From Bacteroidales bacterium (lineage in GTDB: Bacteria > Bacteroidota > Bacteroidia > Bacteroidales > UBA7332): a stretch of 64,000 nt of DNA. Within the stretch, counting starts at the first letter, position 1; each line of letters starts with the position of its first letter. Below the pieces are notes generated by a model. The model saw only the letters and a list, made by a program, of their open reading frames with translations, ran no database searches and was not told the DNA's origin. The translations under genes were made by a program, and so were the position numbers. Where the stretch lies: assembly GCA_028687995.1 (NCBI GenBank), contig JAQTZA010000007.1, positions 21,099 to 85,098 of the forward strand. The letters run 5' to 3'. Shown piece by piece: positions 2,293-49,071 of the stretch.

Positions 2293-3795
2293 CTACACAA
2301 ACTGTTGCCAAATGCTTCCCTTTTGATAATTCTCGATGATAACAGTGCTCTGCTCGTGGTTGTAATCACATACCAAATTTGCGACTTCTTGACGAAGCAT
2401 AGAGATTGCTCCATTTATCATATCCTGACGGAATCCTTTTTCACCCAACACTATGACCATATTCATAGAGGCAATTCGGCTCATCATACGACCTAGTTCT
2501 GTTAATTTACGCTGCTGTTGTTGCAAATCAAGATCAAAACTCACCAAATCTTTGACAATATCAGCTGCACGGCTGGTTAATGAATGACCTTTCAAGAATG
2601 TGTAAAGATTCTTCTCGCCAGCAACCTTCATCAGTTTTAGAAGAGCCTCACCAATTTGAATATAAAGAATATCATTTGAACCTTCAAAAATCTGGAACGG
2701 ACGGCTATCGACAATACCACGACCTGCAACGTGGTTGAGCTTGTATGCTGCTGCACCAACCAACGTAAGAAGTGATTGAGCTGAATCTTGCATTAAATCG
2801 GTAGTCACCGTTTTGATGATATTGGCTTCTAAACCATAAGGTGTCAAATCATTTTTAATATCAGCAAGTTCCACACTTTTCAAACTAAATGCAGAACAAA
2901 TCGTGTAGTCAGCTTGCAAACGAGCCAAGCGTTGTTGCACCTGATCATAAGAATAGAGCGATTTGCCACCAACTGCACGTTGCTGTGCATGTGCAATTGC
3001 TTCATCTAGCATCCGTTGTATAAAACCAAGACCCATACCTGGAAATTGAAGACGACTGCGATGCAAAAGATCAAGCATCATCTGAACACCGGTTGTATGA
3101 GGAATCAATCGTTGTACTTTTGGGATTTTTACATCCAAAATATTTCTACCGTAAGGAATTTGATATAATCCCAAATTTTCAAAATATTCTTCTACTACTA
3201 TCTGTTGATTGTGTGCAGAATTATCACAAATAAAGAAATCGACATCACGCATCAAACCACCATGTGGTGCTTGTTTGCGTGCAGTCAATAACCAAAAATC
3301 GGCTTGTCCGGTTAATCCTGCCCAATGTTTTGTCCCTTTGAGATGAAACGAATTTTCTTCTTCTACAAAAGAAGTTTGCATATTGAGGGCGTCGCTACCA
3401 AAACCAGGTTCAGTAATCATAAGTCCGCCCATGTTTTTCATTTTCATGAAACGATCAAACACAAATGCCTTAGCTTCTGATTGACCATATTTGGCAACTG
3501 GTTGCAAAAAAAGCGCACTATTGATACCAAAAGTCAGCGAGAGAGCCAACGATTCGTACGATGCTGCTGACAACAGCGTTAAATTTTCTTGTACAATATT
3601 TCCGCGTCCACCAAATTCTGTAGGAATACTTACAGATAGAGGATTGCAGGCCATTATTTCGCTCAAAACGTTTTCCGGTAAGCCGCGATTAACACTCAGC
3701 TTATTAATGTCGTTTTCTTCGTGAAACAGCGATTTGAGAGTTGTCTTGAATTCACTGATAAATGAATCGAACGATTTTGTCTGGGGTACTTGCAT
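2293..3795 (-). CDS. Acyl-CoA dehydrogenase family protein
   Basis: MITEPGFGSDA, LKGTKHWAG, R-x-VGG and FQIFEGSNDI motifs of the ACAD fold. Confidence 0.88.
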   Translation of the reverse strand: MQVPQTKSFDSFISEFKTTLKSLFHEENDINKLSVNRGLPENVLSEIMACNPLSVSIPTEFGGRGNIVQENLTLLSAASYESLALSLTFGINSALFLQPVAKYGQSEAKAFVFDRFMKMKNMGGLMITEPGFGSDALNMQTSFVEEENSFHLKGTKHWAGLTGQADFWLLTARKQAPHGGLMRDVDFFICDNSAHNQQIVVEEYFENLGLYQIPYGRNILDVKIPKVQRLIPHTTGVQMMLDLLHRSRLQFPGMGLGFIQRMLDEAIAHAQQRAVGGKSLYSYDQVQQRLARLQADYTICSAFSLKSVELADIKNDLTPYGLEANIIKTVTTDLMQDSAQSLLTLVGAAAYKLNHVAGRGIVDSRPFQIFEGSNDILYIQIGEALLKLMKVAGEKNLYTFLKGHSLTSRAADIVKDLVSFDLDLQQQQRKLTELGRMMSRIASMNMVIVLGEKGFRQDMINGAISMLRQEVANLVCDYNHEQSTVIIENYQKGSIWQQFV

Positions 3796-3827
3796 TATAA
3801 TTCTGATATTTGGTTGATTAACTAATT

Positions 3828-3850
3828 ATGACCCTATGTTTTAAGGTCAT
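3828..3850. promoter_or_regulatory. Candidate operator palindrome upstream of the acyl-CoA dehydrogenase gene
   Basis: ATGACCCTA-tgttt-TAAGGTCAT has 9-bp arms with one mismatch and lies about 33 nt upstream of the start codon. Confidence 0.35.
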
Positions 3851-4178
3851 TTATAATAACAAAACCTTTTGCTAAATGTTCTTAAATCAATTCGTAATTG
3901 TTGTATTATGAGCTCTATTTATAAAGCATAAAGATAAATTATTAGAATCGAATCGAATTCTAATCTTCTATTTTGATGAATATTCACTATTTGAATACTC
4001 GAATAACATGGTTTGGGAGAACAGAAAAAGAGTTGACAATTTCTTTTATCGTAAGGAAATGCTGTGCATAAATAACCTTAAATAGTTTGTTGGTAAAGGT
4101 TGTTACTTATTTGGGGAATGTGTCAATCCAAAATTCATTTTTTTGAAAACCACATTCAAAGGAAAGAAAAAAACAGTA

Positions 4179-4208
4179 GGGAAACACGAAGTTATCTTCG
4201 GATTTCCC
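4179..4208 (-). terminator. Probable terminator of the hdr/qmo-like operon
   Basis: The minus strand reads GGGAAATCCGAAG-ataa-CTTCGTGTTTCCC, then TACTG and a T-run. Confidence 0.55.
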
Positions 4209-4365
4209 CACCAAACTGTGTGTATTACTCATGAATTCATTAGTAATTCATTAGCCGTGAAGCTTTTGGTAATGGCGTTATTTTTGTTGCCGAGAAGCTT
4301 TAATATTAATCGAATGGATTCTTCAACTTCGAAGAGCTGCCTATTCTCTATTTTTCGACTAACAA

Positions 4366-4740
4366 TTAATGACTACAAGTATGACCATGCTCATGTGAAG
4401 AACAATTACTTCCACTATCTTTGACCTTGCCTAAGAGATATTGTAACACAAGGTCATTTACATCTCCATCACAATTTCTAATCACCGATACACCATGATC
4501 ATTGAGTTTATTAATAGCTCCATCGCCAATACCACCTGCCAACATCAGTTCAATTCCCATGGCTTGAAAAAGTTCTGAAACATTCGATTTACATCCACAC
4601 CCTTGTGGCGAGTCCATTCTTTCTTCGAAAATGATCTGATTTGTGCTCGAAATCTCGAAAATCTTATAGAAGGAGCAATGACCAAAATGAGCATCAACTT
4701 GATTATTTTCTTTTGTCGGAACTATAATCTTCATATTCAT
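4366..4740 (-). CDS. NifB/NifX (dinitrogenase FeMo-cofactor biosynthesis) family protein
   Basis: VDAHFGHCSFY, GCGCK and LAGGIGDGAINKL motifs, with a His/Cys-rich tail (CSSHEHGHTCSH). Confidence 0.85.
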   Translation of the reverse strand: MNMKIIVPTKENNQVDAHFGHCSFYKIFEISSTNQIIFEERMDSPQGCGCKSNVSELFQAMGIELMLAGGIGDGAINKLNDHGVSVIRNCDGDVNDLVLQYLLGKVKDSGSNCSSHEHGHTCSH

Positions 4741-4745
4741 ATTTT

Positions 4746-5798
4746 TTATTTACTCAGCTCAATCAATTTAGCAAAATACATAGCAAACGAACGATAGAGA
4801 AAGTGAGTCCATTTACCAAATGGAACAACGATTAACGCCCATTGTGCCAACACAATCAAATGAACGATAAAAATCCACAATTGGCTTTGGATCATATTCA
4901 TATCGATAGCTAATCTTACCAAAAAAGCAGTGAAACCCATCAATAGCAAACCAACTACAAAAAGCCAGTCAGAAGGTTGTGAGTGGGTACTAACCGCTTT
5001 CTGTTTTTTCAAGCGGCTATTCACAAAATCAGCTGTTATCACAAACACGGCGATACTCTCGATATAACCCAAAGCGATAACGAAGAGATTCTTCGAATCG
5101 AACCAATCCAGAAATACGGTGGTAAATAACAATGCCAGGTATCCGAAAACGAGGATCAAATGTTCGAACCATCGCACTTGATTATCGTCGCAGCCCAGCG
5201 AACGTTTTTGGGTAAACATGTGGACAAAGAAATCCCCCGAAGCTTTAAAGTAAGTAGCAAAAGCAACTTTTTTCTTCGGCTTGATAATTACAAAATACCA
5301 CATTCTGATGATGTTGGGCACCAACACAACGGCAAAGACCGAACCAATGGCAATCATTTCGAAATAGTGTCCATAATGCATCAGAGATTCCAATTCGAAG
5401 TTTTGCTGATATGCAAATCCAACAACGCCTAATGCCACGACTATCAATGAAATGAGGGTAACGGCAAGCGATTTATACAAAAGTCCAGAAAATCCGGTCC
5501 AATCGTATTTGGCTGTCAGCCAACGGCGAAGCGACATCATCAATTCTCCCGGATTTGCATCTTGCGGACAGTGCAACGAACATTCGCCACAATAGTAGCA
5601 AAGCCAGGGTTTGAGAGAAGCTTCAATCTCTTGATCTTGTCCCAAGGTGCTACATCTCACCATATTACGCGGGAATGAGTCTTCGGGTGTAGAGAGTGAG
5701 CAAACGGCGGTACACGTTCCGCAATTGTAACACGCATTGAAGTTTTCTGCTCCGTACTCTTTTAGTTTTTCTCCAAATTTAGGATTTATGTTTGCCAT
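4746..5798 (-). CDS. QmoC-like membrane protein: HdrC-type 2x[4Fe-4S] domain fused to an HdrE/cytochrome-b-like membrane domain
   Basis: CYNCGTCTAVC and CYYCGECSLHCP motifs plus NPGELMMSLRR, then about 6 hydrophobic helices with His residues (FEHLIL, IVHLIV, KWTHFLYR). Confidence 0.8.
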   Translation of the reverse strand: MANINPKFGEKLKEYGAENFNACYNCGTCTAVCSLSTPEDSFPRNMVRCSTLGQDQEIEASLKPWLCYYCGECSLHCPQDANPGELMMSLRRWLTAKYDWTGFSGLLYKSLAVTLISLIVVALGVVGFAYQQNFELESLMHYGHYFEMIAIGSVFAVVLVPNIIRMWYFVIIKPKKKVAFATYFKASGDFFVHMFTQKRSLGCDDNQVRWFEHLILVFGYLALLFTTVFLDWFDSKNLFVIALGYIESIAVFVITADFVNSRLKKQKAVSTHSQPSDWLFVVGLLLMGFTAFLVRLAIDMNMIQSQLWIFIVHLIVLAQWALIVVPFGKWTHFLYRSFAMYFAKLIELSK

Positions 5799-6076
5799 TA
5801 TTGTTTCAATTTATAGGTATAATACTCATCCATATCGTCGATCTCGCCGGTTTCTACCCAACCGAATTTTACCATCGACAACAGATTATACATCACTTCG
5901 TGGGTTGGCATCTCCAACTTTTGAGACAATTGAAGTATAGTCATATCACTCTCTTTCAAAGCATCAAGAATTCTTTTCTTAATTTGGGTGAACGCCTTTA
6001 AGTTCTCCTTTACTTGCTCCGATACGCCTTGTTTATCTCTAAGATATTTGGCCGTTTTTCCTTTTTCAACTTCCAT
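5798..6076 (-). CDS. Small winged-helix protein
   Basis: ILDALKESDMTILQLSQKLEMPTHEVMYNLLSMVKFGWV fits a wHTH pattern. The stop codon overlaps the ATG of the QmoC-like gene. Confidence 0.7.
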   Translation of the reverse strand: MEVEKGKTAKYLRDKQGVSEQVKENLKAFTQIKKRILDALKESDMTILQLSQKLEMPTHEVMYNLLSMVKFGWVETGEIDDMDEYYTYKLKQ

Positions 6077-6086
6077 TTTATGTCTG

Positions 6087-8027
6087 TTAAATCTGTTCTG
6101 TTAACGCATCTATCATATTCATAATCTCTTTGCTGGAGAAGGTAACCAAGTCAATCGCATCCGTTGGACAAACAGGTGTACACATGCCACAACCTTTGCA
6201 AACCGTGGTATTGACAACGGCTATTTTTCGATCACCATCGAGACCTTGTGTAATGGCATCGAACGGACAAGCTGTTGAACATTCATTACACCACGTACAT
6301 TTGACAGCGTCGATTTCTACCACAATCGGTTCGGTCTCCAATTCGCCTTTGCTGATGTATGAAAATGCTTTAGTAGCAGCGGAGAGAGAGGAGTTGACCG
6401 ATTCTGCTACGTTTTTCGGACTTTGGCAAGTACCGGCAATCGTGATACCGTCAATCGCTGTCTCTACCGGACGAAGTTTCATGTGAATCTCGTTCAGAAA
6501 ACGATCGCGACCTTTTGGCAATTTGAATAAAGTGCTTACTTTCTTATCCGATCTGGGCACCATACCGGTAACCAACACCACCAAATCAACCTCCACTTGC
6601 ATCTCTTTCGATTCTGTCAGAATATCATTCACCTTCACCCATGTTCTTCCATTTTCGGAATAAACTTCGGCGGGAGAATCGTCTGTTGCCTGAAGATAAA
6701 GATCACCTAATTTTAAGGATTCTGCATACAAAACCTCTTGTTTTCCGTACGTGCGAATGCCCCGATTGAAATGAAAATTGTGGATATTCTTGAACTTCTT
6801 TTTCGCAATAATGGCACTGTGAATGGTTGACGTGCAGCAATACCGTGAACAGTAGCTGTTGCCTTCGTCACCCTGACGACTACCTACGCAATAGATGTAG
6901 GCAATATTTTTTATCTCTTTGCCTTTGTAAATCAGTTTTGATTCACTGTTGTCTATCAGTTTTTTGAATTGTGGTAATGTAATCACACTTTCGTTTTCTG
7001 CATATCCAAACTCTCCATTTTCAGGAGTATAAGGATCGAAACCGGTTGCCATCAGCACCGAACCAACGTGCAACTCCACCATCTCTTTTTGCAAAGATAG
7101 ATCGATGTTTTTACTCACCTTCTCACAAGCACCACAGTGGGTACAAGCGGCATCATCGATGGTTGCCTGTTTGGGATATTGGCTTGCCGCAAATCCATAA
7201 ATAGCTTTGCGATTGGTAATGCCAAAGGTAAAAGGATCGGGCACAACCACCGGACAAACGTCCATCGCCTTTTGAAGCTCTTTCGCATCACAATCTTGAG
7301 AAATGTACCTCGGTGTCGTTTCAATTTTCAAACTGAAATCACCAATACTACCTGAATAAGAAACCACTTCAGAATTGGTGTAGATTTGCACGTTTTTGCG
7401 TGTTACCAACTGAGCATACAACGATGAAATCAGTTCATTTCCAGTCTGATTGGTCGTGAACATTTCGCCCCACTGACCTACTCTTCCACCAATGAATGGC
7501 TCTCTTTCAATCAACACGACCTGCGTATTTTTGTCTGACAAAGAGATAGCCGCTTTCAATCCGGCAACACCTCCACCAATAACAGCCACCGCATTGATTG
7601 CCATAATCTTATTTGGTGTGAGAGATTCTGCCAATCGCGCTTTTGCAATCGCAGCTTTCACGAGTAAAATGGTCTTCTCAGTCGCTCCTTTTTTATCATC
7701 GGAATGTGCCCACGATGCTTGCTCGCGAATGTTGGCATGAACGTAGTTATACTTATTCAAATCAGCTCTTTCGCTCACTTGGCGAAAGGTATTCAAATGC
7801 AGTTTTGGAGAACAAGACGCCACTACGATTCCAGATAAATTTTGTTCCTGAATGTCGAGTACCATCTCTTTCTGATTCGAATCGGAGCAGGCGAACTGAG
7901 TCGTTTTTGACATCAGCACACATCCATCATTTTCGATTGCTTCTCTCACTTTTTCCACGTCAACGTAGTCGGATATATTTCCACCACAATGACATATATA
8001 GACACCTAATCTTTTATCCATTTTCAA
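6087..8027 (-). CDS. hdrA: Heterodisulfide reductase subunit A-like flavoprotein (full-length)
   Basis: N-terminal YICHCG/FACS/ASCSP Cys domain, GGGVAG FAD motif, CVGSR...CSRYCC, and a C-terminal 2x[4Fe-4S] domain (CTWCNECSTACP, CKGCGMCTPVCP). Confidence 0.9.
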   Translation of the reverse strand: MKMDKRLGVYICHCGGNISDYVDVEKVREAIENDGCVLMSKTTQFACSDSNQKEMVLDIQEQNLSGIVVASCSPKLHLNTFRQVSERADLNKYNYVHANIREQASWAHSDDKKGATEKTILLVKAAIAKARLAESLTPNKIMAINAVAVIGGGVAGLKAAISLSDKNTQVVLIEREPFIGGRVGQWGEMFTTNQTGNELISSLYAQLVTRKNVQIYTNSEVVSYSGSIGDFSLKIETTPRYISQDCDAKELQKAMDVCPVVVPDPFTFGITNRKAIYGFAASQYPKQATIDDAACTHCGACEKVSKNIDLSLQKEMVELHVGSVLMATGFDPYTPENGEFGYAENESVITLPQFKKLIDNSESKLIYKGKEIKNIAYIYCVGSRQGDEGNSYCSRYCCTSTIHSAIIAKKKFKNIHNFHFNRGIRTYGKQEVLYAESLKLGDLYLQATDDSPAEVYSENGRTWVKVNDILTESKEMQVEVDLVVLVTGMVPRSDKKVSTLFKLPKGRDRFLNEIHMKLRPVETAIDGITIAGTCQSPKNVAESVNSSLSAATKAFSYISKGELETEPIVVEIDAVKCTWCNECSTACPFDAITQGLDGDRKIAVVNTTVCKGCGMCTPVCPTDAIDLVTFSSKEIMNMIDALTEQI

Positions 8028-8077
8028 TGTTTCGATTGTCGGTTTTTACTTTTATTTCTTTTACAATTCTGATTCGG

Positions 8078-9373
8078 TTACTTCAACAGATAACTAATGG
8101 CTTCTGATGAAGCAGATCCTGCCGAAAGAATAGCATCTGGAATATCCATCGGGCCTGTAGCAGTTCCTGCCACAAAAACGCCGTCAATACTGGTATGCGA
8201 AGGGTTTGCCAATCCATCGGTTTGATGAACAAAACGATACGGATCGAGCATCAATTGCTCCTCTGAGAAAAGTGAAGTGGTTCCTTCATTGGGTAAAACA
8301 CCCACCGAAAGAATCACCATATCGTGCTCCTCTTCTTTCACTATGCCTTCGTTGATATCCTCGTAGCGCAACATCAGATTCCCATTTTCGGTTTCTGAGA
8401 TTGAGCCAACTTTACCTTTCACAAAATTGACACCCATTCCCTTTGCCTGTTGGTAAAAATCTTCGAATCCTTTACCAAAAGCTCTGATATTGATGTAGTA
8501 GATAGTCACATCCGCCATGGGCAAAGCACCCATCAACAGTTGCGATTGCTTGATAGAATACATACAGCAAATCTGTGAACAGATCGGATTTCCGACCGAA
8601 GCATCACGCGATCCCACGCAAAGTACATACGCAATTTTATCAGGCACTTTTCCATCGCTGGGTCTCAAAATGGTATTGAATGGACGGGTCGGTGCAATTT
8701 CACGCTCCATTTGCAGAGAGGTGAGCACATTTTTATATTTTCCAAAACCATATCGGGGAATACGGTTGGCGTCGAACATCTCAAATCCGGTAGCCAAAAT
8801 CACCGTTTTGAATTGCATCTCTAAATGTTCTACCTCCTGAGTAAAATCGATACAATTTGTCGGACAAGCTCGTTCGCAGGCACCACACAACGTACAATTT
8901 TCAATATCGATGGCTGCTGCTTTCGGGCTGGCAATGCTAAAAGGAATATATGCGGCTTTACGGCCAATCAACCCAAACTGGTATTGGTCGCGCACACTTA
9001 CCGGACATGCTTTTTCGCACAATTGGCAAGCGGTACAATCTTCTACTCTCACGTATCGTGGTTGACGGGTGATATTCGCCACAAAATGATTATCGGCAAC
9101 CCGTCTGATATTGGAAGCCTCTGAACCGGTAAAGATGGTGATATTGGGATGACGCGAAATTTCAGATACTTTGGGCGTAGTGATACAGGCTGAGCAATCT
9201 AAAGTCGGGAAAACTTTACTCAACTTGATCATATTGCCGCCCACCGACAAATCTTTTTCTACCAACAATACCTTAAATCCGTTTACGGCTAAGTTTAGTG
9301 CGGCTTCGCCGCCTGCTATGCCTGCTCCGACGACTAATGCATCGTAAGAAACACTATTTTTCGTTGAACTCAT
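8078..9373 (-). CDS. hdrA: Heterodisulfide reductase subunit A-like flavoprotein (short, QmoA-sized)
   Basis: GAGIAG FAD motif, FPTLDCSAC, an inserted 2x[4Fe-4S] domain (CTACQLCEKACP, CTLCGACERACP) and CVGSR...CSQICCMYSIK. It lacks the N-terminal and C-terminal Fe-S domains. Confidence 0.9.
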   Translation of the reverse strand: MSSTKNSVSYDALVVGAGIAGGEAALNLAVNGFKVLLVEKDLSVGGNMIKLSKVFPTLDCSACITTPKVSEISRHPNITIFTGSEASNIRRVADNHFVANITRQPRYVRVEDCTACQLCEKACPVSVRDQYQFGLIGRKAAYIPFSIASPKAAAIDIENCTLCGACERACPTNCIDFTQEVEHLEMQFKTVILATGFEMFDANRIPRYGFGKYKNVLTSLQMEREIAPTRPFNTILRPSDGKVPDKIAYVLCVGSRDASVGNPICSQICCMYSIKQSQLLMGALPMADVTIYYINIRAFGKGFEDFYQQAKGMGVNFVKGKVGSISETENGNLMLRYEDINEGIVKEEEHDMVILSVGVLPNEGTTSLFSEEQLMLDPYRFVHQTDGLANPSHTSIDGVFVAGTATGPMDIPDAILSAGSASSEAISYLLK

Positions 9374-9783
9374 TTCTCTGTATTTGAACTCTTTAATAAG
9401 TATTCGTTGAAACTTTTGATCTGTTTCACAAACGATTCGCTACACACTGAACACATCGCTGCCATTCTCAATCTTGCGGGCTCGATCTGTTTTTCCTGCA
9501 TCAGAATATGAGTTTTGCCAACCAATGCACCTGTTTTCTCGGTACACGATTCACCAAACACACAATCGCTTCCATCCGCAGCAATAAATACACCATCAAA
9601 TCCTTTTTCGTAGGCATACATGATCCAACTGGGTTTAATTCCACTAGAGCAAGGAATTGTGATTGTATAAACGGTGGGTGGGTAATGCAACTTTAACAAA
9701 CCGGCCATATCGATTGCCGGATCTGAAATTTTCTCGGTCGAAAACACCAATATTTTCGCACTTTTTTTCGAAATATCTGCCAT
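9370..9783 (-). CDS. MvhD/FlpD-like iron-sulfur subunit (divergent)
   Basis: IDMAGLLKLHYPP...IPCSSGIKPSWIMYAYEKGFDGVFI...DC...IEPARLR follows the MvhD pattern. The stop overlaps the hdrA start by 4 bp. Confidence 0.8.
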   Translation of the reverse strand: MADISKKSAKILVFSTEKISDPAIDMAGLLKLHYPPTVYTITIPCSSGIKPSWIMYAYEKGFDGVFIAADGSDCVFGESCTEKTGALVGKTHILMQEKQIEPARLRMAAMCSVCSESFVKQIKSFNEYLLKSSNTEK

Positions 9784-9819
9784 GTCTTATGGGTTATGAG
9801 AGGCTTTTTATAAAAAAGA

Positions 9820-9898
9820 GTAAAGGGCAGCAAAGGAGTATTTTGTAAAACATCTAACCTTAATACAATAGACACAACCGATGAAATCTGCCCTTTAC
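9820..9898. repeat. Intra-operon inverted repeat between tusA and mvhD
   Basis: GTAAAGGGCAG (9820-9830) and CTGCCCTTTAC (9888-9898) form a perfect 11-bp inverted repeat. Confidence 0.75.
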
Positions 9899-9916
9899 AA
9901 TACTGTTTGACAGGAA

Positions 9917-10168
9917 TTATTTTTTCTTGAGATAAACTTTGAAATATCCGTTTACATCCACAAAACCCAAGTATTCGTGACCTTGTTTTCCGCACCATTT
10001 GGGGATATCCGATTTCGTTCCTTCGTCTGCTGATAATACTTCCATCACATCACCTGATTTGATGCTACCAATTGTTTTTTTTGCTTCCAAAAGCGGTCCG
10101 GGACAAGCTGTTCCTCTTGCATCTACTGATTTTGCTACCGCTACGGTCATTAATTCTTCTGTTGTCAT
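9917..10168 (-). CDS. tusA: TusA/SirA family sulfur-carrier protein
   Basis: VDARGTACPGPLLEAKK...EVLSADEGTKSDIPKWC. The start was moved to the ATG at 10168 because the longer ORF overlaps dsrE. Confidence 0.9.
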   Translation of the reverse strand: MTTEELMTVAVAKSVDARGTACPGPLLEAKKTIGSIKSGDVMEVLSADEGTKSDIPKWCGKQGHEYLGFVDVNGYFKVYLKKK

Positions 10169-10214
10169 AATTTGTCTTTTTAATTTGAATATAGAAATTC
10201 TGAATCTTGTTTTC

Positions 10215-10781
10215 TCAAATAAATAGTTGAATGCTGCTTTCGCCAGCATCTGCCACAAAAGTGCCCGCTCCTGCGTAGCGTAGGTTTGGATAATCAATGA
10301 TCTCCTCTTTCTTGAAGCCCATCAAATTCATCGACATCTCACACACGGTAATTTCGATGCCCAATTCGCCGGCCTCTTTAAACATCTGATCCAACGACAT
10401 GACACCTTGTTTTTTCATCAAGTGATTAATCATTTTAGGGCCAATACCGCACATATTCATATTGGATAACGCCAATTTCTCTTTACCTTTTGGCAGCATC
10501 ATACCAAACATTTTTGAAATGATGTCTTTACCGGGTGCTTTTTTCTTGCGATCCCGCAAAGCCGAAACCGACCAGAACGAGAAAAACAGTTTCACCTCTG
10601 TATCCATCGCAGCAGCAGCAATGGAGATAACCATGGCCGCCAGAATCTTATCCATATCACCCGAAACAATAGCCATTGATAATTGATCTTTGCGCGAATT
10701 TTCCAGTGTGCTTATCTTGCTTTTCAGCTCATCTATCTGAGCTTGAAGGTCTGCGATTTCGATATTTTTATTCGTTTCCAT
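10215..10781 (-). CDS. DsrE/DsrF/DrsH-like (DsrE2-type) sulfurtransferase
   Basis: SGDMDKILAAMVISIAAAAMDTEVKLFFSFWS and ITVCEMSMNLMG (conserved Cys), with an N-terminal coiled coil. Confidence 0.88.
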   Translation of the reverse strand: METNKNIEIADLQAQIDELKSKISTLENSRKDQLSMAIVSGDMDKILAAMVISIAAAAMDTEVKLFFSFWSVSALRDRKKKAPGKDIISKMFGMMLPKGKEKLALSNMNMCGIGPKMINHLMKKQGVMSLDQMFKEAGELGIEITVCEMSMNLMGFKKEEIIDYPNLRYAGAGTFVADAGESSIQLFI

Positions 10782-10820
10782 AATGAATTATACTAAAATT
10801 GGTTTGTTAAATTTGATAGG

Positions 10821-18567: not shown

Positions 18568-19050
18568 ATGAACGAACGGATTGTGAGCGCAAAGATACAA
18601 GTTTATGAACTTGAAGAACTATCAGAAATCGAAAAAAACCTTATAAAATTGGCTCAAGATGCAACGAGCAGAGCGTATGCTCCATATTCTAAATTTCAAG
18701 TGGGTGCAGCTGCGCTGCTCGAAAATGGTGAAATAATAACGGGAACAAATCAAGAAAATGCAGCCTATCCATCGGGATTGTGTGCTGAACGTGTCGCACT
18801 CTTTTTCGCAAACTCACAATTCCCCAACGTTGGAGTAAAATTATTGGCAATAGCTGCTCAAACAGGTGGCAGCTTCACCAAAGAGTGCACTGCTCCGTGT
18901 GGTTCTTGCCGTCAAGTTATTCTTGAAACAGAAAATCGATTCGACACTCCTATTCGGATTTTAATGGCGGGTAGCGAAGTCATTTATGCTGTGAATAGCA
19001 TCACAGAACTATTGCCACTTCATTTCGACAAAAGTAGCTTGAACGGCTAA
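18568..19050 (+). CDS. cdd: Cytidine deaminase
   Basis: AYAPYSKFQVGAA, ENAAYPSGLCAER and PCGSCRQ. Confidence 0.95.
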   Translation: MNERIVSAKIQVYELEELSEIEKNLIKLAQDATSRAYAPYSKFQVGAAALLENGEIITGTNQENAAYPSGLCAERVALFFANSQFPNVGVKLLAIAAQTGGSFTKECTAPCGSCRQVILETENRFDTPIRILMAGSEVIYAVNSITELLPLHFDKSSLNG

Positions 19051-19092
19051 TTAAATAATTCGAAAAACATATCAATTCGTTCACATTCAAAA

Positions 19093-19233
19093 AATTCGAT
19101 AAGCTCAACACCTTGAATATATCATATTATTATATCATATTGAAAATCAATTTATTAATAATTTTAGAAACAACTACTAAAGCGAATATATACGCAACTG
19201 AGTTGAGCTTATCGGAATTAGAGTTGAGCTTAT
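19093..19233. repeat. Nested inverted and direct repeats upstream of the cassette-like gene (attI-like or decayed attC-like)
   Basis: AATTCGATAAGCTCAAC (19093-19109) is inverted to GTTGAGCTTATCGGAATT (19202-19219). GAGTTGAGCTTAT is repeated directly at 19200 and 19221. Confidence 0.7.
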
Positions 19234-19239
19234 ATTGAT

Positions 19240-20506
19240 GTTAGCGGTAAGGCTAAAAAAATAAAATATAAAACAAAAACATTATGCAAGAGATTAAAAT
19301 TGTAAATCAAGAGAATGATCTTGAACCTAAGAATTTCTCAAAAGGTTATCTCACTTTTCCATTTGACATAAGTCAATTTAAAGATTTCATAACAGGGCTA
19401 CTTGGTAAACCTCAAACCATTTCGAAGAGAATTTCAGGCAACTTTGAAGTACAACTAAGTGACTTACAAAGTTTTTATGAATTGGTTAATCAACGTGTTA
19501 CTCAACAAAACAATGGACAACTAATACAATTTACCGCAAAAATATTCTTTACAGACCGTTCTGCAGTTCAATTAGGAAGTTATAATGAACTTGTAACGTA
19601 CAACGAAGTAAAACCTATTATCTCCGAAGCGGTAAAATTAACTTGGGACTATTTAATTCAATTTAGTGACAAAACACACCCAGAAAAACAAGTAATTGAG
19701 CTGTTAATAATATCAGCAACTGAAAAAGCAGTAATTGAAGACGACGATGTACCCTCTTTTTTATATGTTTCAAAAGGAGAATTCAGAATTAATATTGAAC
19801 ATACTGCGAGAAGTTTTGGGTCGGATATTGAAAATACACTAACAAATCAAATTGAATCACTTTTAAAAAAAGAAAATAAATTCAAACGTTTTGTTAGGAG
19901 ACATAGTAGTAAATTCAGTTTGGGATTTTCATTTTTATTCTTACTTACATCAATTTTTGGGGCTTACTTAGCGACAAGTCATTTTATTGAAAATGAAATG
20001 AAAAGAGTCCAAACATATACTAATTCCGCTCAACATACAGTTAATGAAAAGGTTGATTTTCTTACATCCTATATGGCTAGCGGTGTTTCTTCACAACATT
20101 ATTTTAAAGTGGTGATTTTCTTGCTTATTTCAGTGATTTTATCTATACTTTTTGGGGTTTGGATTGAAGAAACTGCTTCAAATAACAGAGAACTAAGCTT
20201 TGTAACCCTAACTCGAAAAGCAAAAGATTATAGAGATGAAATTAGAAAAAAAATGGAACATAAGTGGACTTGGTTTTTAATTTCAATTGGAACGAGTATC
20301 GCAACAGGAATAATCGCAAACATTATTTTTAATTTTCTTGTGGAAAAGCCCTAACCGCTAACACACGCCTATGTCCATTGGCTGGCTGACGTGCATTCCG
20401 GCAGTTTTGCTCCCGCATTCACCTTGTCGTTCCACGAAAGCGAACGCTCCCGCAAATGAAACATCCCGCCTAAGCGGTGACCGCCAAATGCCCATAGCCT
20501 CGGTCG
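19240..20506 (+). mobile_element. Solitary integron-type gene cassette (putative)
   Basis: It starts with GTTAGCGGTAAGGCT and has the near-perfect inverse AGCCCTAACCGCTAAC at the gene stop. A 155-bp imperfect palindrome follows and ends in GTT. The cargo gene is AT-rich. Confidence 0.55.
19284..20354 (+). CDS. Hypothetical membrane protein (cassette cargo)
   Basis: Long open AT-rich ORF with a soluble N-terminal region of about 205 aa and three C-terminal hydrophobic segments. No family recognised. Confidence 0.8.
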   Translation: MQEIKIVNQENDLEPKNFSKGYLTFPFDISQFKDFITGLLGKPQTISKRISGNFEVQLSDLQSFYELVNQRVTQQNNGQLIQFTAKIFFTDRSAVQLGSYNELVTYNEVKPIISEAVKLTWDYLIQFSDKTHPEKQVIELLIISATEKAVIEDDDVPSFLYVSKGEFRINIEHTARSFGSDIENTLTNQIESLLKKENKFKRFVRRHSSKFSLGFSFLFLLTSIFGAYLATSHFIENEMKRVQTYTNSAQHTVNEKVDFLTSYMASGVSSQHYFKVVIFLLISVILSILFGVWIEETASNNRELSFVTLTRKAKDYRDEIRKKMEHKWTWFLISIGTSIATGIIANIIFNFLVEKP

Positions 20507-20512
20507 TTTCAA
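20355..20512. repeat. attC-like recombination site
   Basis: CCGCTAAC (R''-like), CTATGTCCATTGGC (20369-20382), its imperfect inverse GCCAAATGCCCATAG (20483-20497), then GTT at 20506. Confidence 0.55.
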
Positions 20513-20525
20513 AAAAATAATCTCT

Positions 20526-21773
20526 ATGAATAAACTTCTTTACATATTGCTTTTCCAACTTATTCTACCAGCCGTCGTTGCACAATCTAAAGCAGCAGAC
20601 GATCTGGTGAGAACTCTCACAGTAAGGGTGAAAGAGAATTGGCAAGTACCGCCAGTGATAGAACTGAATGGAGATCAGAGCATTGAAATTAAATTCGATT
20701 ATCTGGATTTGAATGTTCACTATTTCTACTATAAGATTACCCATTGCGATGCCAGTTGGAAACCAACAGACATTTCAGAATCTGAATTTCTCAATGGATT
20801 CAATAACCAACCGATTGAGATTCACAAAACATCGTTCAACACCTACGAAAACTACACTAACTATCAATTTACGATTCCAAATGACAATTTAAAAGTCAGA
20901 CTTTCGGGCAATTATCAAGTGACAATTTATGACAACGACAACCCCGAAACCGTCATTGCAACGGCACGTTTTTCGGTGTACGAACGGTTAGTGAATGTAG
21001 GAGCAACAATCAACACCATTACAGATATCGATTACAATCGCGGACATCAACAACTCGATTTGCAGATTGATACGCGCAACTACACCATCAGAACGCCTCA
21101 AATGGAAATGAAAGTGGTTGTGAATCAGAATAGCCGAACCGACAACCAGGCATTGCTGACGATTCCTACGATCACTCAAGGTTCGAATCTACTATTTACG
21201 CATGTTCGTGACCTGATTTTTGAAGCAGGCAATGAGTTTCGACGTTTCGAAATGGTTTCGTACCGATACAATGGGCTCAATGTAGAGCAAATTAAACACA
21301 TCAACCCCTATTTTCATGCCTTTCTCTATCGCGATAAAATCAAGACATTCAGCACCTATGTTTATGACCAAGACCAAGATGGTCGTTGCTTTATCAGAAA
21401 TAGCGAAGCACAAGATTTCGACAACGAATCCGACTATTTCGTCACCCACTTTTCGTTAGCATCAGATGCACCAATAGGAAACGGGAAACTCTATATTTTA
21501 GGCGAATTTAATGGTTTTAAAATAGATCCGGCGTGGGAAATGGAGTACGACATCGATCAACGGGCATACACAAAAAAGATTTCGCTGAAACAAGGTGCAT
21601 ACAATTATCAGTATATCTTTGTACCCGATGGACAACAAAAGGGAACCACCGCTTTAACCGATGGAAATTTCTACGAAACGGAGAACGAATACACTGTACG
21701 AGTATTTCATCGACCCATCGGAGGAAGATACGATAGGTTAGTAGGATATGGTTTATTCAAATCGACTAAATAA
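20526..21773 (+). CDS. DUF5103 / type IX secretion system plug-like protein
   Basis: Signal peptide; YKITHCDASW, FEAGNEFRRF, LKQGAYNYQY and GNFYETENEY...YDRLVG motifs. Confidence 0.75.
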   Translation: MNKLLYILLFQLILPAVVAQSKAADDLVRTLTVRVKENWQVPPVIELNGDQSIEIKFDYLDLNVHYFYYKITHCDASWKPTDISESEFLNGFNNQPIEIHKTSFNTYENYTNYQFTIPNDNLKVRLSGNYQVTIYDNDNPETVIATARFSVYERLVNVGATINTITDIDYNRGHQQLDLQIDTRNYTIRTPQMEMKVVVNQNSRTDNQALLTIPTITQGSNLLFTHVRDLIFEAGNEFRRFEMVSYRYNGLNVEQIKHINPYFHAFLYRDKIKTFSTYVYDQDQDGRCFIRNSEAQDFDNESDYFVTHFSLASDAPIGNGKLYILGEFNGFKIDPAWEMEYDIDQRAYTKKISLKQGAYNYQYIFVPDGQQKGTTALTDGNFYETENEYTVRVFHRPIGGRYDRLVGYGLFKSTK

Positions 21774-24627: not shown

Positions 24628-26037
24628 ATGACAAAGACAAATAAGCTGAGCACAAAAGAAAAATCGGTTCGTATCAATATTGATTCGAAATACTACGGAG
24701 CAATCGCCGAAATTGGTGGTGGACAAGAGACTGCCCGACATCTATTTCAAGCGGGTGGCGCATCTAATACCGTTGCTAAATCCATTTCAGCGTATGATAA
24801 GCTTTTCAGCGACCATTTTTATAATCACGGAACACCCTCGCGTTATGTCGCAGAAGATCGTTTGCGTAAAATGGTGGATTATGAGTACGACGAACTGATT
24901 GAAATTCTGGACAAAAAAAACAGCCAAAAATTCTTTGCTTTTGCCAATACGGTTGAGACCCTAAACTTCACGAAAACGAATCAAGGAAGCGGTTGGCTGG
25001 GCATTTCGGTAGAAGGCACAAAGCGGTATGAGCCGAATAAGATTTTCATTCACGTAAAGTTGCACGAAAACGACACCTTATTGCAACAATATACACTTGG
25101 AGCCTTAGGCATAAATCTCATTTATGGCGGTCTTTTTGAATGGGAAGATCCCCGCAAAATTCTCCTTTCACTGCTCGACAATCTGGATACTGATCGTGTA
25201 GAAGTCGATTATATATATGTAGAAGGCCCCGATATGAAATGGGTGGACAATCGCATTCTTAATCTGATGTTGGTCAGCAACAACATGACACCCGCCATCA
25301 TGTTCGACAAAGATGGCAAAGTGCAACAACCCAGTGATATGTTGCACAAAAAGAATGTCCTTTTGCTCAGAGGATATTTCAGACCGATTAATAATTTGGG
25401 AATAGATTTCATCAACGATAGTCTGGCAATATTCAAGCAAGACGAAGATTATATGCCTGATAATACGATTGCGTTTTGCGAAATTTCGTTGAATTCACTC
25501 ATGCGAAACGAAAAAGTAGATGAAAAGGATTTTCTTCATCGGGTAGATTTGCTCAATATGATGGGGCAAAGTGTGATGATCTCTCGTTTCACACGTTTCT
25601 TCAAATTGGTCAACTATTTTGCGCAGTTTAAGATGATTAAACTTCGACTCGTGATTGGACTGCCTACTTTCGAGAAAATTCTAGACAACCAAAACTACAC
25701 CGATTTGCGAGGTGGACTTCTGGAAGCAATGGGCACCATGTTTCAAGAAAATGTAAAAATTTACCTATTCCCTTACCTCGACTCTAAAACGGATGAAGTG
25801 AAATATCCCGAAGATACACACTTCTCACCAGAGAATCGCCTTCTGTGGCAATACCTGAATATAACAAAAAAAATACTGATTCTGAACAGCATTTCTTCTA
25901 GAAATTTGAAAATAAATTCAGAATATATCACAAAACTAATTGAAAATGGCAATGACAGTTTTGCTGAATTTGTTCCACAAGAAGTTTTTGAGCATATTAA
26001 AAAGCACAAGCTATTTGGTTATGATCGAAATAAATAG
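24628..26037 (+). CDS. Conserved Bacteroidota protein with a possible nucleotidyltransferase-like C-terminal fold
   Basis: YGAIAEIGGGQETAR...AKSISAYD at the N-terminus, an LRGYFRP motif, and C-terminal VPQEVFEHIKKHKLFGY resembling the end of NadD. Confidence 0.55.
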   Translation: MTKTNKLSTKEKSVRINIDSKYYGAIAEIGGGQETARHLFQAGGASNTVAKSISAYDKLFSDHFYNHGTPSRYVAEDRLRKMVDYEYDELIEILDKKNSQKFFAFANTVETLNFTKTNQGSGWLGISVEGTKRYEPNKIFIHVKLHENDTLLQQYTLGALGINLIYGGLFEWEDPRKILLSLLDNLDTDRVEVDYIYVEGPDMKWVDNRILNLMLVSNNMTPAIMFDKDGKVQQPSDMLHKKNVLLLRGYFRPINNLGIDFINDSLAIFKQDEDYMPDNTIAFCEISLNSLMRNEKVDEKDFLHRVDLLNMMGQSVMISRFTRFFKLVNYFAQFKMIKLRLVIGLPTFEKILDNQNYTDLRGGLLEAMGTMFQENVKIYLFPYLDSKTDEVKYPEDTHFSPENRLLWQYLNITKKILILNSISSRNLKINSEYITKLIENGNDSFAEFVPQEVFEHIKKHKLFGYDRNK

Positions 26038-27967: not shown

Positions 27968-28606
27968 ATGAAATTTAATAGAAAAATAATGAGTCTTGTT
28001 TTGTGCTGTATTTTTATAAGCTGTAATTCCCAAAATAATAGCAAAACACAGTCAATTAATAGCAGAAATGCTAATAATCAATTAGATATAACTCAATCTT
28101 GTCAAAAAGCAACCAGTACTTTAAAATATGATGACTACAATGTTGTTAAAGACACTCTGAAAATTAATTCAGATGATGATTTTATAGACTACCCATTTGG
28201 CTGTTTTAAAAAATTAGCAGATTTAAAGAACCAAATGAAGAATCTGCATTATAAACAAGAGTGCTATGAAGATCAGGATAAGACTAAATTAGAAAAGTTT
28301 TATTCTGGTAGAAATTATGTAAAGTTCTATTTTGTAGAAAGATTTATTGATAAAAAAAGTCGATATGAGATTGTATCGGCAAAAATATTGGATAATGATA
28401 TATTATTGACAAACGGAGTTCATATAGGTATGTCCAAAACTGAATTCTTGTCAATTATTCCTTCAGCAATCAAAATTAGTAATGAGGGAATTAATGTAGT
28501 AGAGTTATGTTGGGATGTTCTTGGAGTGTATCATTATTATAGCTTTAGTAATGATACTCTAACATCAATAATTATTGATACTGATTTTCAAGTTAATAAA
28601 AATTAG
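27968..28606 (+). CDS. Hypothetical lipoprotein
   Basis: Lipobox-like IFISC-NSQ at the N-terminus; AT-rich. Confidence 0.7.
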   Translation: MKFNRKIMSLVLCCIFISCNSQNNSKTQSINSRNANNQLDITQSCQKATSTLKYDDYNVVKDTLKINSDDDFIDYPFGCFKKLADLKNQMKNLHYKQECYEDQDKTKLEKFYSGRNYVKFYFVERFIDKKSRYEIVSAKILDNDILLTNGVHIGMSKTEFLSIIPSAIKISNEGINVVELCWDVLGVYHYYSFSNDTLTSIIIDTDFQVNKN

Positions 28607-48459: not shown

Positions 48460-49071
48460 TTAGTCTTCTTTATAAAAACCTTTGTGCTTTAGAATTGACT
48501 TCGACACAGCAAAGATGACTGCAGCATTCCAATCAGTGAGATAAGTTTGAGCTTTGTAATTGTTATGATTTTCATCAGAGAAAAGAGCAAAATAGTAGGT
48601 GTATTCTCTTAATCTCAAATCTTCCCATTTAACAAAAATATTCTTTTTAGAAATATCCCAACAAACACCTGAATTACTGAAAGCAAATCCTTCTATTTGA
48701 AGGGTTTCTCCTTTTAGTATATTTTCTATTTGATAAGAAATGATATCTTCGAAATAATACTCATATAGCTTATCGACAATATCAGTGAATTTTTCACTTA
48801 ACGTTTTTTTGTTAATACTATATATCGATCTGAGGCGAATTTTTATAATTCTATTTTTAGAATCTCTTATATCGATACAAAATAAACGACCAATTGTAAA
48901 ATCAACCCCTCGAATCCAACTTACTCCAAATCTAAAACCTTCAATCTCTTTTTTTTCTAGTTTGGTAATGGTTCGATTTTCATTAGAAAGAGTCAGTTCA
49001 TCTTCCGAGAAAGTAATAACTCTTTTAGGACTGTAGAAATTCGTTTTATACTCAATTTTAAAATCTTCCAC
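48460..49071 (-). CDS. Hypothetical protein
   Basis: Open AT-rich 203-aa ORF co-oriented between conserved genes. No family recognised. Confidence 0.65.
   Translation of the reverse strand: MEDFKIEYKTNFYSPKRVITFSEDELTLSNENRTITKLEKKEIEGFRFGVSWIRGVDFTIGRLFCIDIRDSKNRIIKIRLRSIYSINKKTLSEKFTDIVDKLYEYYFEDIISYQIENILKGETLQIEGFAFSNSGVCWDISKKNIFVKWEDLRLREYTYYFALFSDENHNNYKAQTYLTDWNAAVIFAVSKSILKHKGFYKED

Follow-up and report, generated by a model that had tools for sequence, protein, structure and literature searches.

A probable solitary integron-type cassette between cdd and a T9SS plug gene of a Bacteroidales chromosome, and related cassette arrays beside Xer/IntI-like recombinases without the IntI insertion

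Within a 64,000-nt stretch of Bacteroidales DNA (assembly GCA_028687995.1, contig JAQTZA010000007.1, positions 21,099 to 85,098; this whole stretch is the window, numbered from its first letter), an AT-rich gene that has the features of an integron cassette stands alone between two host genes. To its left lies cdd, encoding cytidine deaminase (18568-19050, plus strand; Pfam dCMP_cyt_deam_1, 1.4e-16), and to its right the gene for a type IX secretion system (T9SS) plug protein (20526-21773, plus strand; NCBIfam T9SS_plug, 1.2e-121). Between the two come, in order, an AT-rich element of 190 nt (19051-19240, 25% GC) that is missing in relatives and ends at the G of a left-hand G|TT, the presumptive cassette of 1266 nt (19241-20506, plus strand), and a host spacer, TTTCAAAAAAATAATCTCT, which on our reading of the sequence runs up to the plug start codon (20507-20525). 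The limits of the cassette, from the TT of the left G|TT to the G of the right one at 20506|20507, were set by homology and by our cassette routine, which returned a 1266-nt cassette with a 157-nt site and found the same architecture in homologous array cassettes. Its 5' leader (19241-19283, plus strand) consists of TTAGCGGTAAGGCTA followed by an A-rich tract and resembles the cassette starts of arrays; an open reading frame (ORF) of 356 aa comes next (19284-20354, plus strand), with ~30% GC against 40-45% in the flanks; and the gene end is overlapped by an outer box, AGCCCTAAC, which together with the R'' core CGCTAAC (20356-20362) spans 20347-20362 on the plus strand and is the reverse complement of the cassette start. 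This core opens an attC-type recombination site of 157 nt (20356-20512, plus strand).

The complementarity of the two gene ends is nearly complete: TGTTAGCGGTAAGG (19239-19252) and CCTAACCGCTAACA (20350-20363) match at 13 of 14 positions, with the second copy 2 nt past the stop codon. We estimate the chance of finding a pair of this type at both ends of a gene at ~0.006, and no additional copy of the 14-nt pair occurs within the 64-kb window. An original prediction made from the sequence alone had described the gene, its complementary ends, the adjoining repeats and the G|TT boundaries, all of which lie where it placed them. It had also remarked on the lack of an integrase in the window and, indeed, a Pfam scan of the 20 window ORFs of 200-500 aa detected no tyrosine recombinase, the remaining scanned ORFs being housekeeping genes. 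Three window ORFs (24628-26037, 27968-28606 and 48460-49071, of 469, 212 and 203 aa) are without a Pfam match at E <= 1e-4.

That the segment was inserted follows from the relatives, in which cdd and the plug gene lie only 13-33 nt apart, as against 1475 nt in the window. This short gap was found in a Bacteroidales metagenome-assembled genome (MAG; L068), in a 5.3-Mb genome (L069) and in a Logan contig (L070), in all of which the gene order on either side of the junction is identical to that of the window and the AT-rich gene is absent. The closest plug-protein relatives are 62-77% identical.

Metagenomic depth and joints define the mobile unit further. The source landfill metagenome (X1), which contains 96% of the sampled words, covers the genome at ~24x and the site region at 1034x and 556x in its two bins. 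Three other runs (X2, X3 and X6) show zero depth over the flanking cdd and plug genes. They do contain the ORF, at ~98% identity and 8-10x, on contigs of ~1.2 kb whose match starts at 19244 and which stop within the site; the latter reaches 5,000-44,000x there, joined to many different upstream sequences. Its excess over the surrounding sequence ranges from 40x to >1000x. A contig of X8, a run from the same study as X1, is 100% identical to the window from 19240 on, with AATGCCCATAGCCTCGGTC, the 3' terminus of this family of attC sites, in front of it, while in X2/X3 contigs (98% identical) the cassette is preceded by another sequence, ending ...GGTGTTAG. The left boundary thus falls at G|TT in three contexts (the window, X8 and X2/X3). 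Among the contigs of X1, from which rare variants are dropped, there were no joints skipping the cassette, and no excision or empty allele.

The site that closes the cassette comprises R'' (20356-20362), L'' (20369-20382), a variable centre, L' (20483-20497), a spacer (20498-20505) and a hybrid R', GTTTCAA (20506-20512), all given on the plus strand. The block 20355-20512 is GC-rich (50% GC), with terminal arms CTATGTCCATTGGC (20369-20382) and GCCAAATGCCCATAG (20483-20497). With R'' as CGCTAAC and the rebuilt R' as GTTAGCG, inverse core sites of the RYYYAAC / GTTRRRY kind are in place, R'' deviating from the RY consensus in its first two bases. The block had been described as a 155-bp imperfect palindrome, and this holds for the terminal arms, which do pair, but not for the block as a whole, in which pairing is confined to the ends. 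When the junction of a circular cassette is rebuilt (attC plus TTAGCG after the G), a single long hairpin forms, whereas the integrated form gives none; the fold energy of its bottom strand is -31.2 kcal/mol (z -2.3; 3 of 200 shuffles do equally well), so the attC-like fold foreseen for the bottom strand is seen in this circular junction. The mismatches and the one-base bulge between L'' and L' are preserved in every family copy. An Rfam scan of 18900-20700 returned noise only, and a naive scanner for AAC...GTT arm pairing was dropped as it could not separate the site from background.

Similar repeats linked to other variable genes, as would befit a cassette system, were readily found. A BLAST search of the site against all fetched loci revealed four spaced copies, 89-96% identical to it, in a 3.1-kb contig (L075), where they part different genes, one of them a 49% homologue of the window ORF. 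Further related copies lie in L150 and L154-L161, the exact 3' arm occurs in eight IMG/VR contigs, and across L075, L150 and L154-L161 the same site family is joined to many unrelated genes; in the window itself, neither BLAST nor a covariance model detected a second copy. The L075 copies also locate the crossover. At all 3 junctions there, the variable triplet after GTTA agrees with the R'' of the site that follows, and at only 1 does it agree with the R'' of the site to which it belongs, single-site self-complementarity failing in 2 of 3, and because the rule linking cassette start and end holds throughout while self-pairing fails, we place the crossover at G|TT. These copies measure ~133 nt, and the window site differs from them by an additional hairpin module of 24 nt (20456-20479). 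Where this optional central module occurs (the window and the X2/X3 contigs), its stems, CCGC-CTAA-GCGG, CCGT-GTAA-CGG and CCGT-GCG-ACGG, differ yet stay paired.

Covariance models R1, R2 and R3 were built ad hoc from 8, 20 and 150 related sites, leaving out a MAFFT alignment of mixed-length attCs in which the arms were misaligned. The models recover held-out sites in seven loci (L071, L042, L048, L057 and L151-L153) and hundreds more in IMG/VR loci. A covariance-model check, which the original prediction had proposed, came out negative for the window: R1-R3 never score its site, even with filters off, nor the L075 copies, and for this reason we regard the window site as a separate sequence class. 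The two classes do meet. One window-type site, at 2362-2493 of L157, forms part of a chain with model-positive sites to either side of it, in L160 a site at 274-404 combines the window-type 3' arm with a positive model score, and neighbours of window-type sites in L154, L156 and L157 are scored by the models; arm sequences and cassette leaders are visibly similar between the classes. Within the model class, 91% of the cells are paired across 150 aligned sites, against 24-35% in slid controls, and there are 860 double-sided (compensatory) changes, figures from an alignment that was fitted to the model and so is biased towards structure. G-U pairs are almost lacking, as expected for a DNA hairpin. 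Beyond the core boxes, a motif (T/A)YAGTG(G/C) after L'' is kept in long Bacteroidota sites (L010, L049, L071 and L153), with TGACGTGC at 20386-20394 of the window, and outer boxes CCTAAC / GTAAGG together with the A-rich cassette leader widen the conserved region past the classical R boxes.

Whole arrays follow the same rule. That a cassette starts with the reverse complement of its own R'' holds throughout L010, L049, L071, L075, L153, L176, L222 and L229; unbroken chains of cassettes are present in Prolixibacteraceae JC049 (L010), Flavobacterium muglaense (L049) and a JGI contig (L071), and chain lengths across these three loci and L153, L176, L222 and L229 run from 3 to >15 cassettes. Cassette starts resemble the GTTAGCGGTAAGGCTA of the window, as in GTTAGCGGTCAGGCTA (L229, nearly equal), GTTAGCGGTCAGGC (L071) and GTTAGCGGTCAGTGTAAAAAAAAAG (L075). 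On contig L071, the gene for a recombinase stops 114 nt short of the first G|TT (GTTAGCGGTCAGGC), and the array's second cassette carries a homologue of the window ORF at 65% identity. The enzyme has 96% identity with a 479-aa protein of Cyclobacterium lianum and is one of a large family in Bacteroidota; the L071 layout recurs in C. lianum (L151) and in a Bacteroidales MAG (L153), with cassettes and recombinase in the same direction and, by the start/end rule, the first G|TT 114-140 nt from the end of the recombinase gene in all three. A Marinilabiliaceae MAG (L152) has two R2-positive sites and no chain by a strict 9-mer rule. One model-positive site in this locus (8173-8302) lies upstream of the recombinase, behind an AAA_14/DUF4143 gene and on the opposite side from the expected array. 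Five control loci had no model-positive sites.

A second form of recombinase was met in viral sequence. Eighty IMG/VR loci were chosen solely by the similarity of their recombinases to those above, and 55 of them contain R2 sites, 209 in total, nearly all on the strand opposite the recombinase. In the three loci that we traced (L229, L176 and L222), chains of 7 to >15 cassettes begin 50-780 nt from the 5' end of the recombinase gene, whose ORF measures 267 aa in L229 and 266 aa in L176. In L176 (8787-12386) and L229 (10219-11319), these units of short recombinase and array adjoin a fusion of SNF2 helicase and DNA methyltransferase and a thymidylate synthase; given such phage-like neighbours, some arrays are perhaps carried by phages or phage-like elements.

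Both forms are related to integron integrases and lack their hallmark. Against VchIntIA (PDB 2A3V), residues 206-382 of the 479-aa protein align to 9-182 and residues 404-473 to 247-316, which leaves 21 residues where VchIntIA has the 64 of the IntI insertion region (183-246). PF00589 aligns to the array-linked recombinase without gaps, and its best solved relatives are archaeal XerA proteins. The IntI model TIGR02249 is among the best NCBIfam matches, at 150-210 bits (210 for L071) against a cut-off of 265, in two pieces with a break at model position ~180, and the break recurs at ~180 in the short recombinases of L229 and L176. The 479-aa form has, in addition, an N-terminus of 200 aa without assignment. 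Just upstream of each 479-aa recombinase, and divergent from it, is a small conserved gene of 118-137 aa (L151 8491-8904; L152 8506-8880; L153 8549-8905, minus strand), with an N-terminal CxxC...C..QC zinc-ribbon or treble-clef motif and a weak match to DUF2116. Its product may be an accessory factor.

What the cassette encodes can be described in outline. The protein has no significant sequence match in Pfam, PADLOC, NCBIfam, PHROGs or PDB. Its AlphaFold2 model (predicted local distance difference test, pLDDT, 81) shows an N-terminal alpha/beta domain (residues 29-193) and then a C-terminal region of long helices with hydrophobic stretches, and a Foldseek search with this model gave no match at E < 1e-3. 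The hydrophobic helices read as membrane spans, in which case the protein would be membrane-anchored. Genome and metagenome scans yielded ~100 homologues, sparsely distributed over many phyla (Bacteroidota, Vibrio, Xanthomonas, Nostoc, Desulfobacteraceae and Planctomycetes, among others), with different neighbours at every locus examined. Upstream of the gene, a GTT-led word of 8-12 nt recurs as a reverse complement ending in AAC, at most ~30 nt from the stop codon; a perfect GTT.../...AAC match of at least 8 nt marks the gene ends at 13 of 62 genome loci and 11 of 80 metagenome loci, as compared with 1 of 80 in a control window inside the gene. After the homologue genes comes an imperfect palindrome of 56-200 nt ending in GTT. 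In Desulfobacteraceae, Thiohalomonadaceae and Vibrio, the ORF family is also found on short classical attCs. The original prediction of a Bacteroidota-specific cassette system finds support in one half: arrays beside recombinases without the insertion support a distinct system, and with the ORF family on these classical attCs too, its specificity to Bacteroidota is not established.

One homologue lies in a JGI contig (L003, Ga0081606_1000109), in which single genes with TIR/SEFIR, SLFN-AlbA_2, DUF5677 and TPR domains follow one another at 2600-10800, a repeat of ~100 nt (ATTGTCAGTGTATAGTTTGATTGCG...) standing between them; the homologue is also flanked by a second direct repeat of ~150 nt (4625-4737 / 6050-6163). 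As R3 gave no match in L003, these repeats are maybe another class of site. A role in phage defence, or another accessory function, would be our guess for the cassette protein, prompted by these neighbouring domains and by the literature, in which integron cassettes often encode phage defence.

We consider it very probable that 19241-20506 is a mobile integron-type cassette which inserted on its own into the short spacer between cdd and the plug gene. The insertion has exact boundaries, its end site belongs to a heavily repeated family borne by arrays, and its ORF to a family carried by cassettes. In its G|TT boundaries and array-type end site, it agrees with the cassette proposed in the original prediction and is, with high likelihood, of the SALIN type (single attC lacking integrase). 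The insertion could have proceeded as follows. In the circular cassette, the 157-nt site would fold by matching R'' (CGCTAAC) to R' (GTTAGCG), with imperfect pairing between L'' and L'. A tyrosine recombinase, encoded at another place in the genome or brought by a donor, would cut at G|TT and join the circle to a chromosomal GTT. The left junction would then read G|TTAGCGG and the right one ...GGTCG|TTTCAA, and the outcome would be a solitary cassette with no integrase nearby. Joining 20507-20525 to 19238-19240 rebuilds the putative GTT target. As for the enzyme, by analogy with the arrays of this attC class, it was probably an Xer/IntI-like recombinase of 267 or 479 aa without the IntI insertion.

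Several observations pull the other way. The 157-nt site exceeds the classical attC range (~55-141 nt), its integrated form folds no better than shuffles (z -0.8, -1.2), and the pairing of L'' with L' is unexceptional when taken alone. The silence of the covariance models on the window site and the L075 copies belongs here, too, as does the fact that no recombinase adjoins window-type sites within the sequence of L075 or L154-L161. No circle or excision product was seen, and the X8 junction could derive from an array. The relatives with an empty site are distant, at 62-77% plug identity, and none is of the same species. Lastly, the left 190-nt element is likewise absent from them, so that the insertion was perhaps not a single clean event.

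Could that left element be part of the story? In it, GAGTTGAGCTTAT occurs exactly at 19200 and 19221 (direct repeats 19200-19212 and 19221-19233), with an inverted copy at 19099-19111 within an 18-nt inverted repeat of 89% (19092-19109 with 19202-19219). The direct repeats had been taken for those of an attI-like site, an idea that found no support, as the element has no similarity to the attI-side regions of L071, L151, L153, L229 or L222. It could instead be a decayed cassette without an ORF, a native spacer that supplied the GTT target, or an operator. On the first of these possibilities, 19051-20506 would be the remnant of a small array, with a degenerate ORF-less cassette whose end site is GCTCAAC...GTTGAGC placed before the ORF cassette, and thus a two-site CALIN (cluster of attC sites lacking integrases) that arrived together or stepwise. 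The absence of the whole 190 nt from relatives would then be accounted for, the cores of the left inverted repeat fit RYYYAAC / GTTRRRY exactly and could mark a second, decayed site with a good fold (hairpin z -4.4), and three G|TT sites follow in a row (19202, 19223 and 19240). On the other hand, there is no L-box pairing, no covariance-model match and no related copy of the left element, which stands at single-copy depth in X1 and was not found in other runs; moreover, the cores are flanked on their outer sides by further complementarity, a pattern of unrecombined sites that does not suit a linear array. We consider this version of events unlikely. A native origin of the gene, subsequently deleted in relatives, would be easiest to entertain because the relatives compared are so distant, but the ~30% GC of the ORF against 40-45% in the flanks, the 98-100% identical cassettes in samples without cdd or plug flanks, and the different neighbours of homologues at each locus examined leave it barely credible, and we reject it. 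We likewise reject, as highly improbable, a non-autonomous transposon resembling a miniature inverted-repeat transposable element, with the 14-nt GTTAGCGGTAAGG pair as its terminal inverted repeats: the 13/14 inverted repeat around the ORF is what such an element would show, but there is no target-site duplication (the flanks are TTGA and CACG), the mobile unit in other metagenomes extends ~150 nt past the right repeat, no copies were seen that have the 14-nt repeats as their exact limits together with duplicated targets, and the 14-nt repeats obey the start/end rule of arrays.

A separate question is that of the enzyme. Perhaps the cassette is that of an ordinary integron and a canonical IntI, equipped with the additional I2 helix region, moved it, while the recombinases without I2 beside the arrays have another role, for instance that of phage integrases or Xer paralogues. 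The behaviour of IntI fits the G|TT crossover, the layout of R and L boxes and the GTT target; the ORF family sits on classical attCs of 56-87 nt in Desulfobacteraceae, Thiohalomonadaceae, Saprospiraceae and a Bacteroidales MAG; and several IMG/VR arrays are in phage-like contexts, where an integrase is expected regardless. Nevertheless, no IntI-type protein was seen beside any array of this class, all 4 examined Bacteroidota loci (L071, L151, L152 and L153) have model-positive sites near a recombinase without I2, as do 55 of 80 viral loci selected by recombinase alone, and the TIGR02249 scores remain under the cut-off with the break at ~180, so we give this explanation a low probability. With the cassette reading retained, the window element would be a stray from a widespread and undescribed integron-like branch of Bacteroidota and phage-like elements, with sites of 90-200 nt and Xer/IntI-like recombinases that never gained I2 or lost it; we advance this tentatively, as a possibility that falls a little short of probable. 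That the recombinase family and its arrays are both truly undescribed and functional is similarly conceivable, and we stop just below calling it likely.

Among known systems, SALINs come closest: such solitary cassettes have already been described, as has the way they arise, an integrase inserting them at genomic GWT sites (the GWT target rule is that of Loot et al.). The window element shares with them one ORF with one attC-type site, no integrase or clear second site nearby, and a crossover at G|TT in a chromosomal GTT (5'-GWT-3'). It differs in its 157-nt site, of a class that models of related arrays do not score, in the extra 190-nt left repeat element, and in a partner enzyme that is probably not a canonical IntI. 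The related arrays would count as CALINs under the rules of IntegronFinder, as they lack IntI, provided that its attC model recognises their sites; they differ from CALINs in adjoining a dedicated-looking recombinase, and the window element in having one clear site. The Vibrio cholerae repeat (VCR)-type sedentary arrays of Vibrio are similar in that a sequence-conserved, highly repeated family of sites stands between unrelated small genes, cassette starts are complementary to their own R'', and the hairpins are imperfect with strong covariation. Here, by contrast, the sites measure 90-200 nt and have outer boxes CCTAAC / GTAAGG, an A-rich leader and a TYAGTG-like motif that follows L'', they occur in Bacteroidota and on phage-like contigs, and the recombinase is without I2, its 479-aa form co-directional with the cassettes. 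Like IntI (TIGR02249; VchIntIA), the array-linked enzymes are Xer/IntI-like and stand at the head of the array, with an attI-like gap of ~50-780 nt in the traced loci; unlike IntI, they are without the insertion and measure 267 aa or 479 aa. What defines IntI is an additional domain (the I2 helix region), held to enable recombination of single-stranded attC, and this domain is present neither in the window nor in the recombinases of related arrays, so that neither qualifies as a complete integron.

The element itself is a modest find, as integrons are known to give rise to solitary cassettes. The wider setting is less familiar. Integron reviews count Bacteroidota among the phyla that carry integrons, IntegronFinder 2.0 reports for them one complete integron, in Salinibacter, and otherwise only loner integrases, no model for Bacteroidota is among the taxon-specific attC models of Ghaly et al., and Darracq et al. 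give Bacteroidota as an example of a clade earlier found without any integrons. A phylum treated as nearly integron-free nonetheless holds long, rule-obeying arrays in cultured Flavobacterium, Cyclobacterium and Prolixibacteraceae and in many metagenome contigs. Our full-text literature search, of incomplete coverage, turned up no account of attC-type arrays with a recombinase at their head that lacks the IntI domain. Such recombinases at array heads imply either that the necessity of I2 is open to question, or that folded sites are handled differently in these systems. Likewise, a single site family at thousands-fold depth in landfill and groundwater metagenomes implies a large reservoir of mobile genes, one that is probably under-counted.

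Two minor observations concern other loci. In the relative L068, a YefM/YoeB toxin-antitoxin pair (120-628) adjoins an ABC-F gene. Elsewhere, solitary genes for 23S_rRNA_IVP or four-helix-bundle proteins and a Y1_Tnp gene lie between housekeeping genes in Mucilaginibacter and Kaistella (L002 1705-2070; L005 264-731 and 2109-2474), the 23S_rRNA_IVP gene being called in L002 yet not in L001, an NCBI contig with the same protein; these cases are another kind of single-gene insertion in Bacteroidota.

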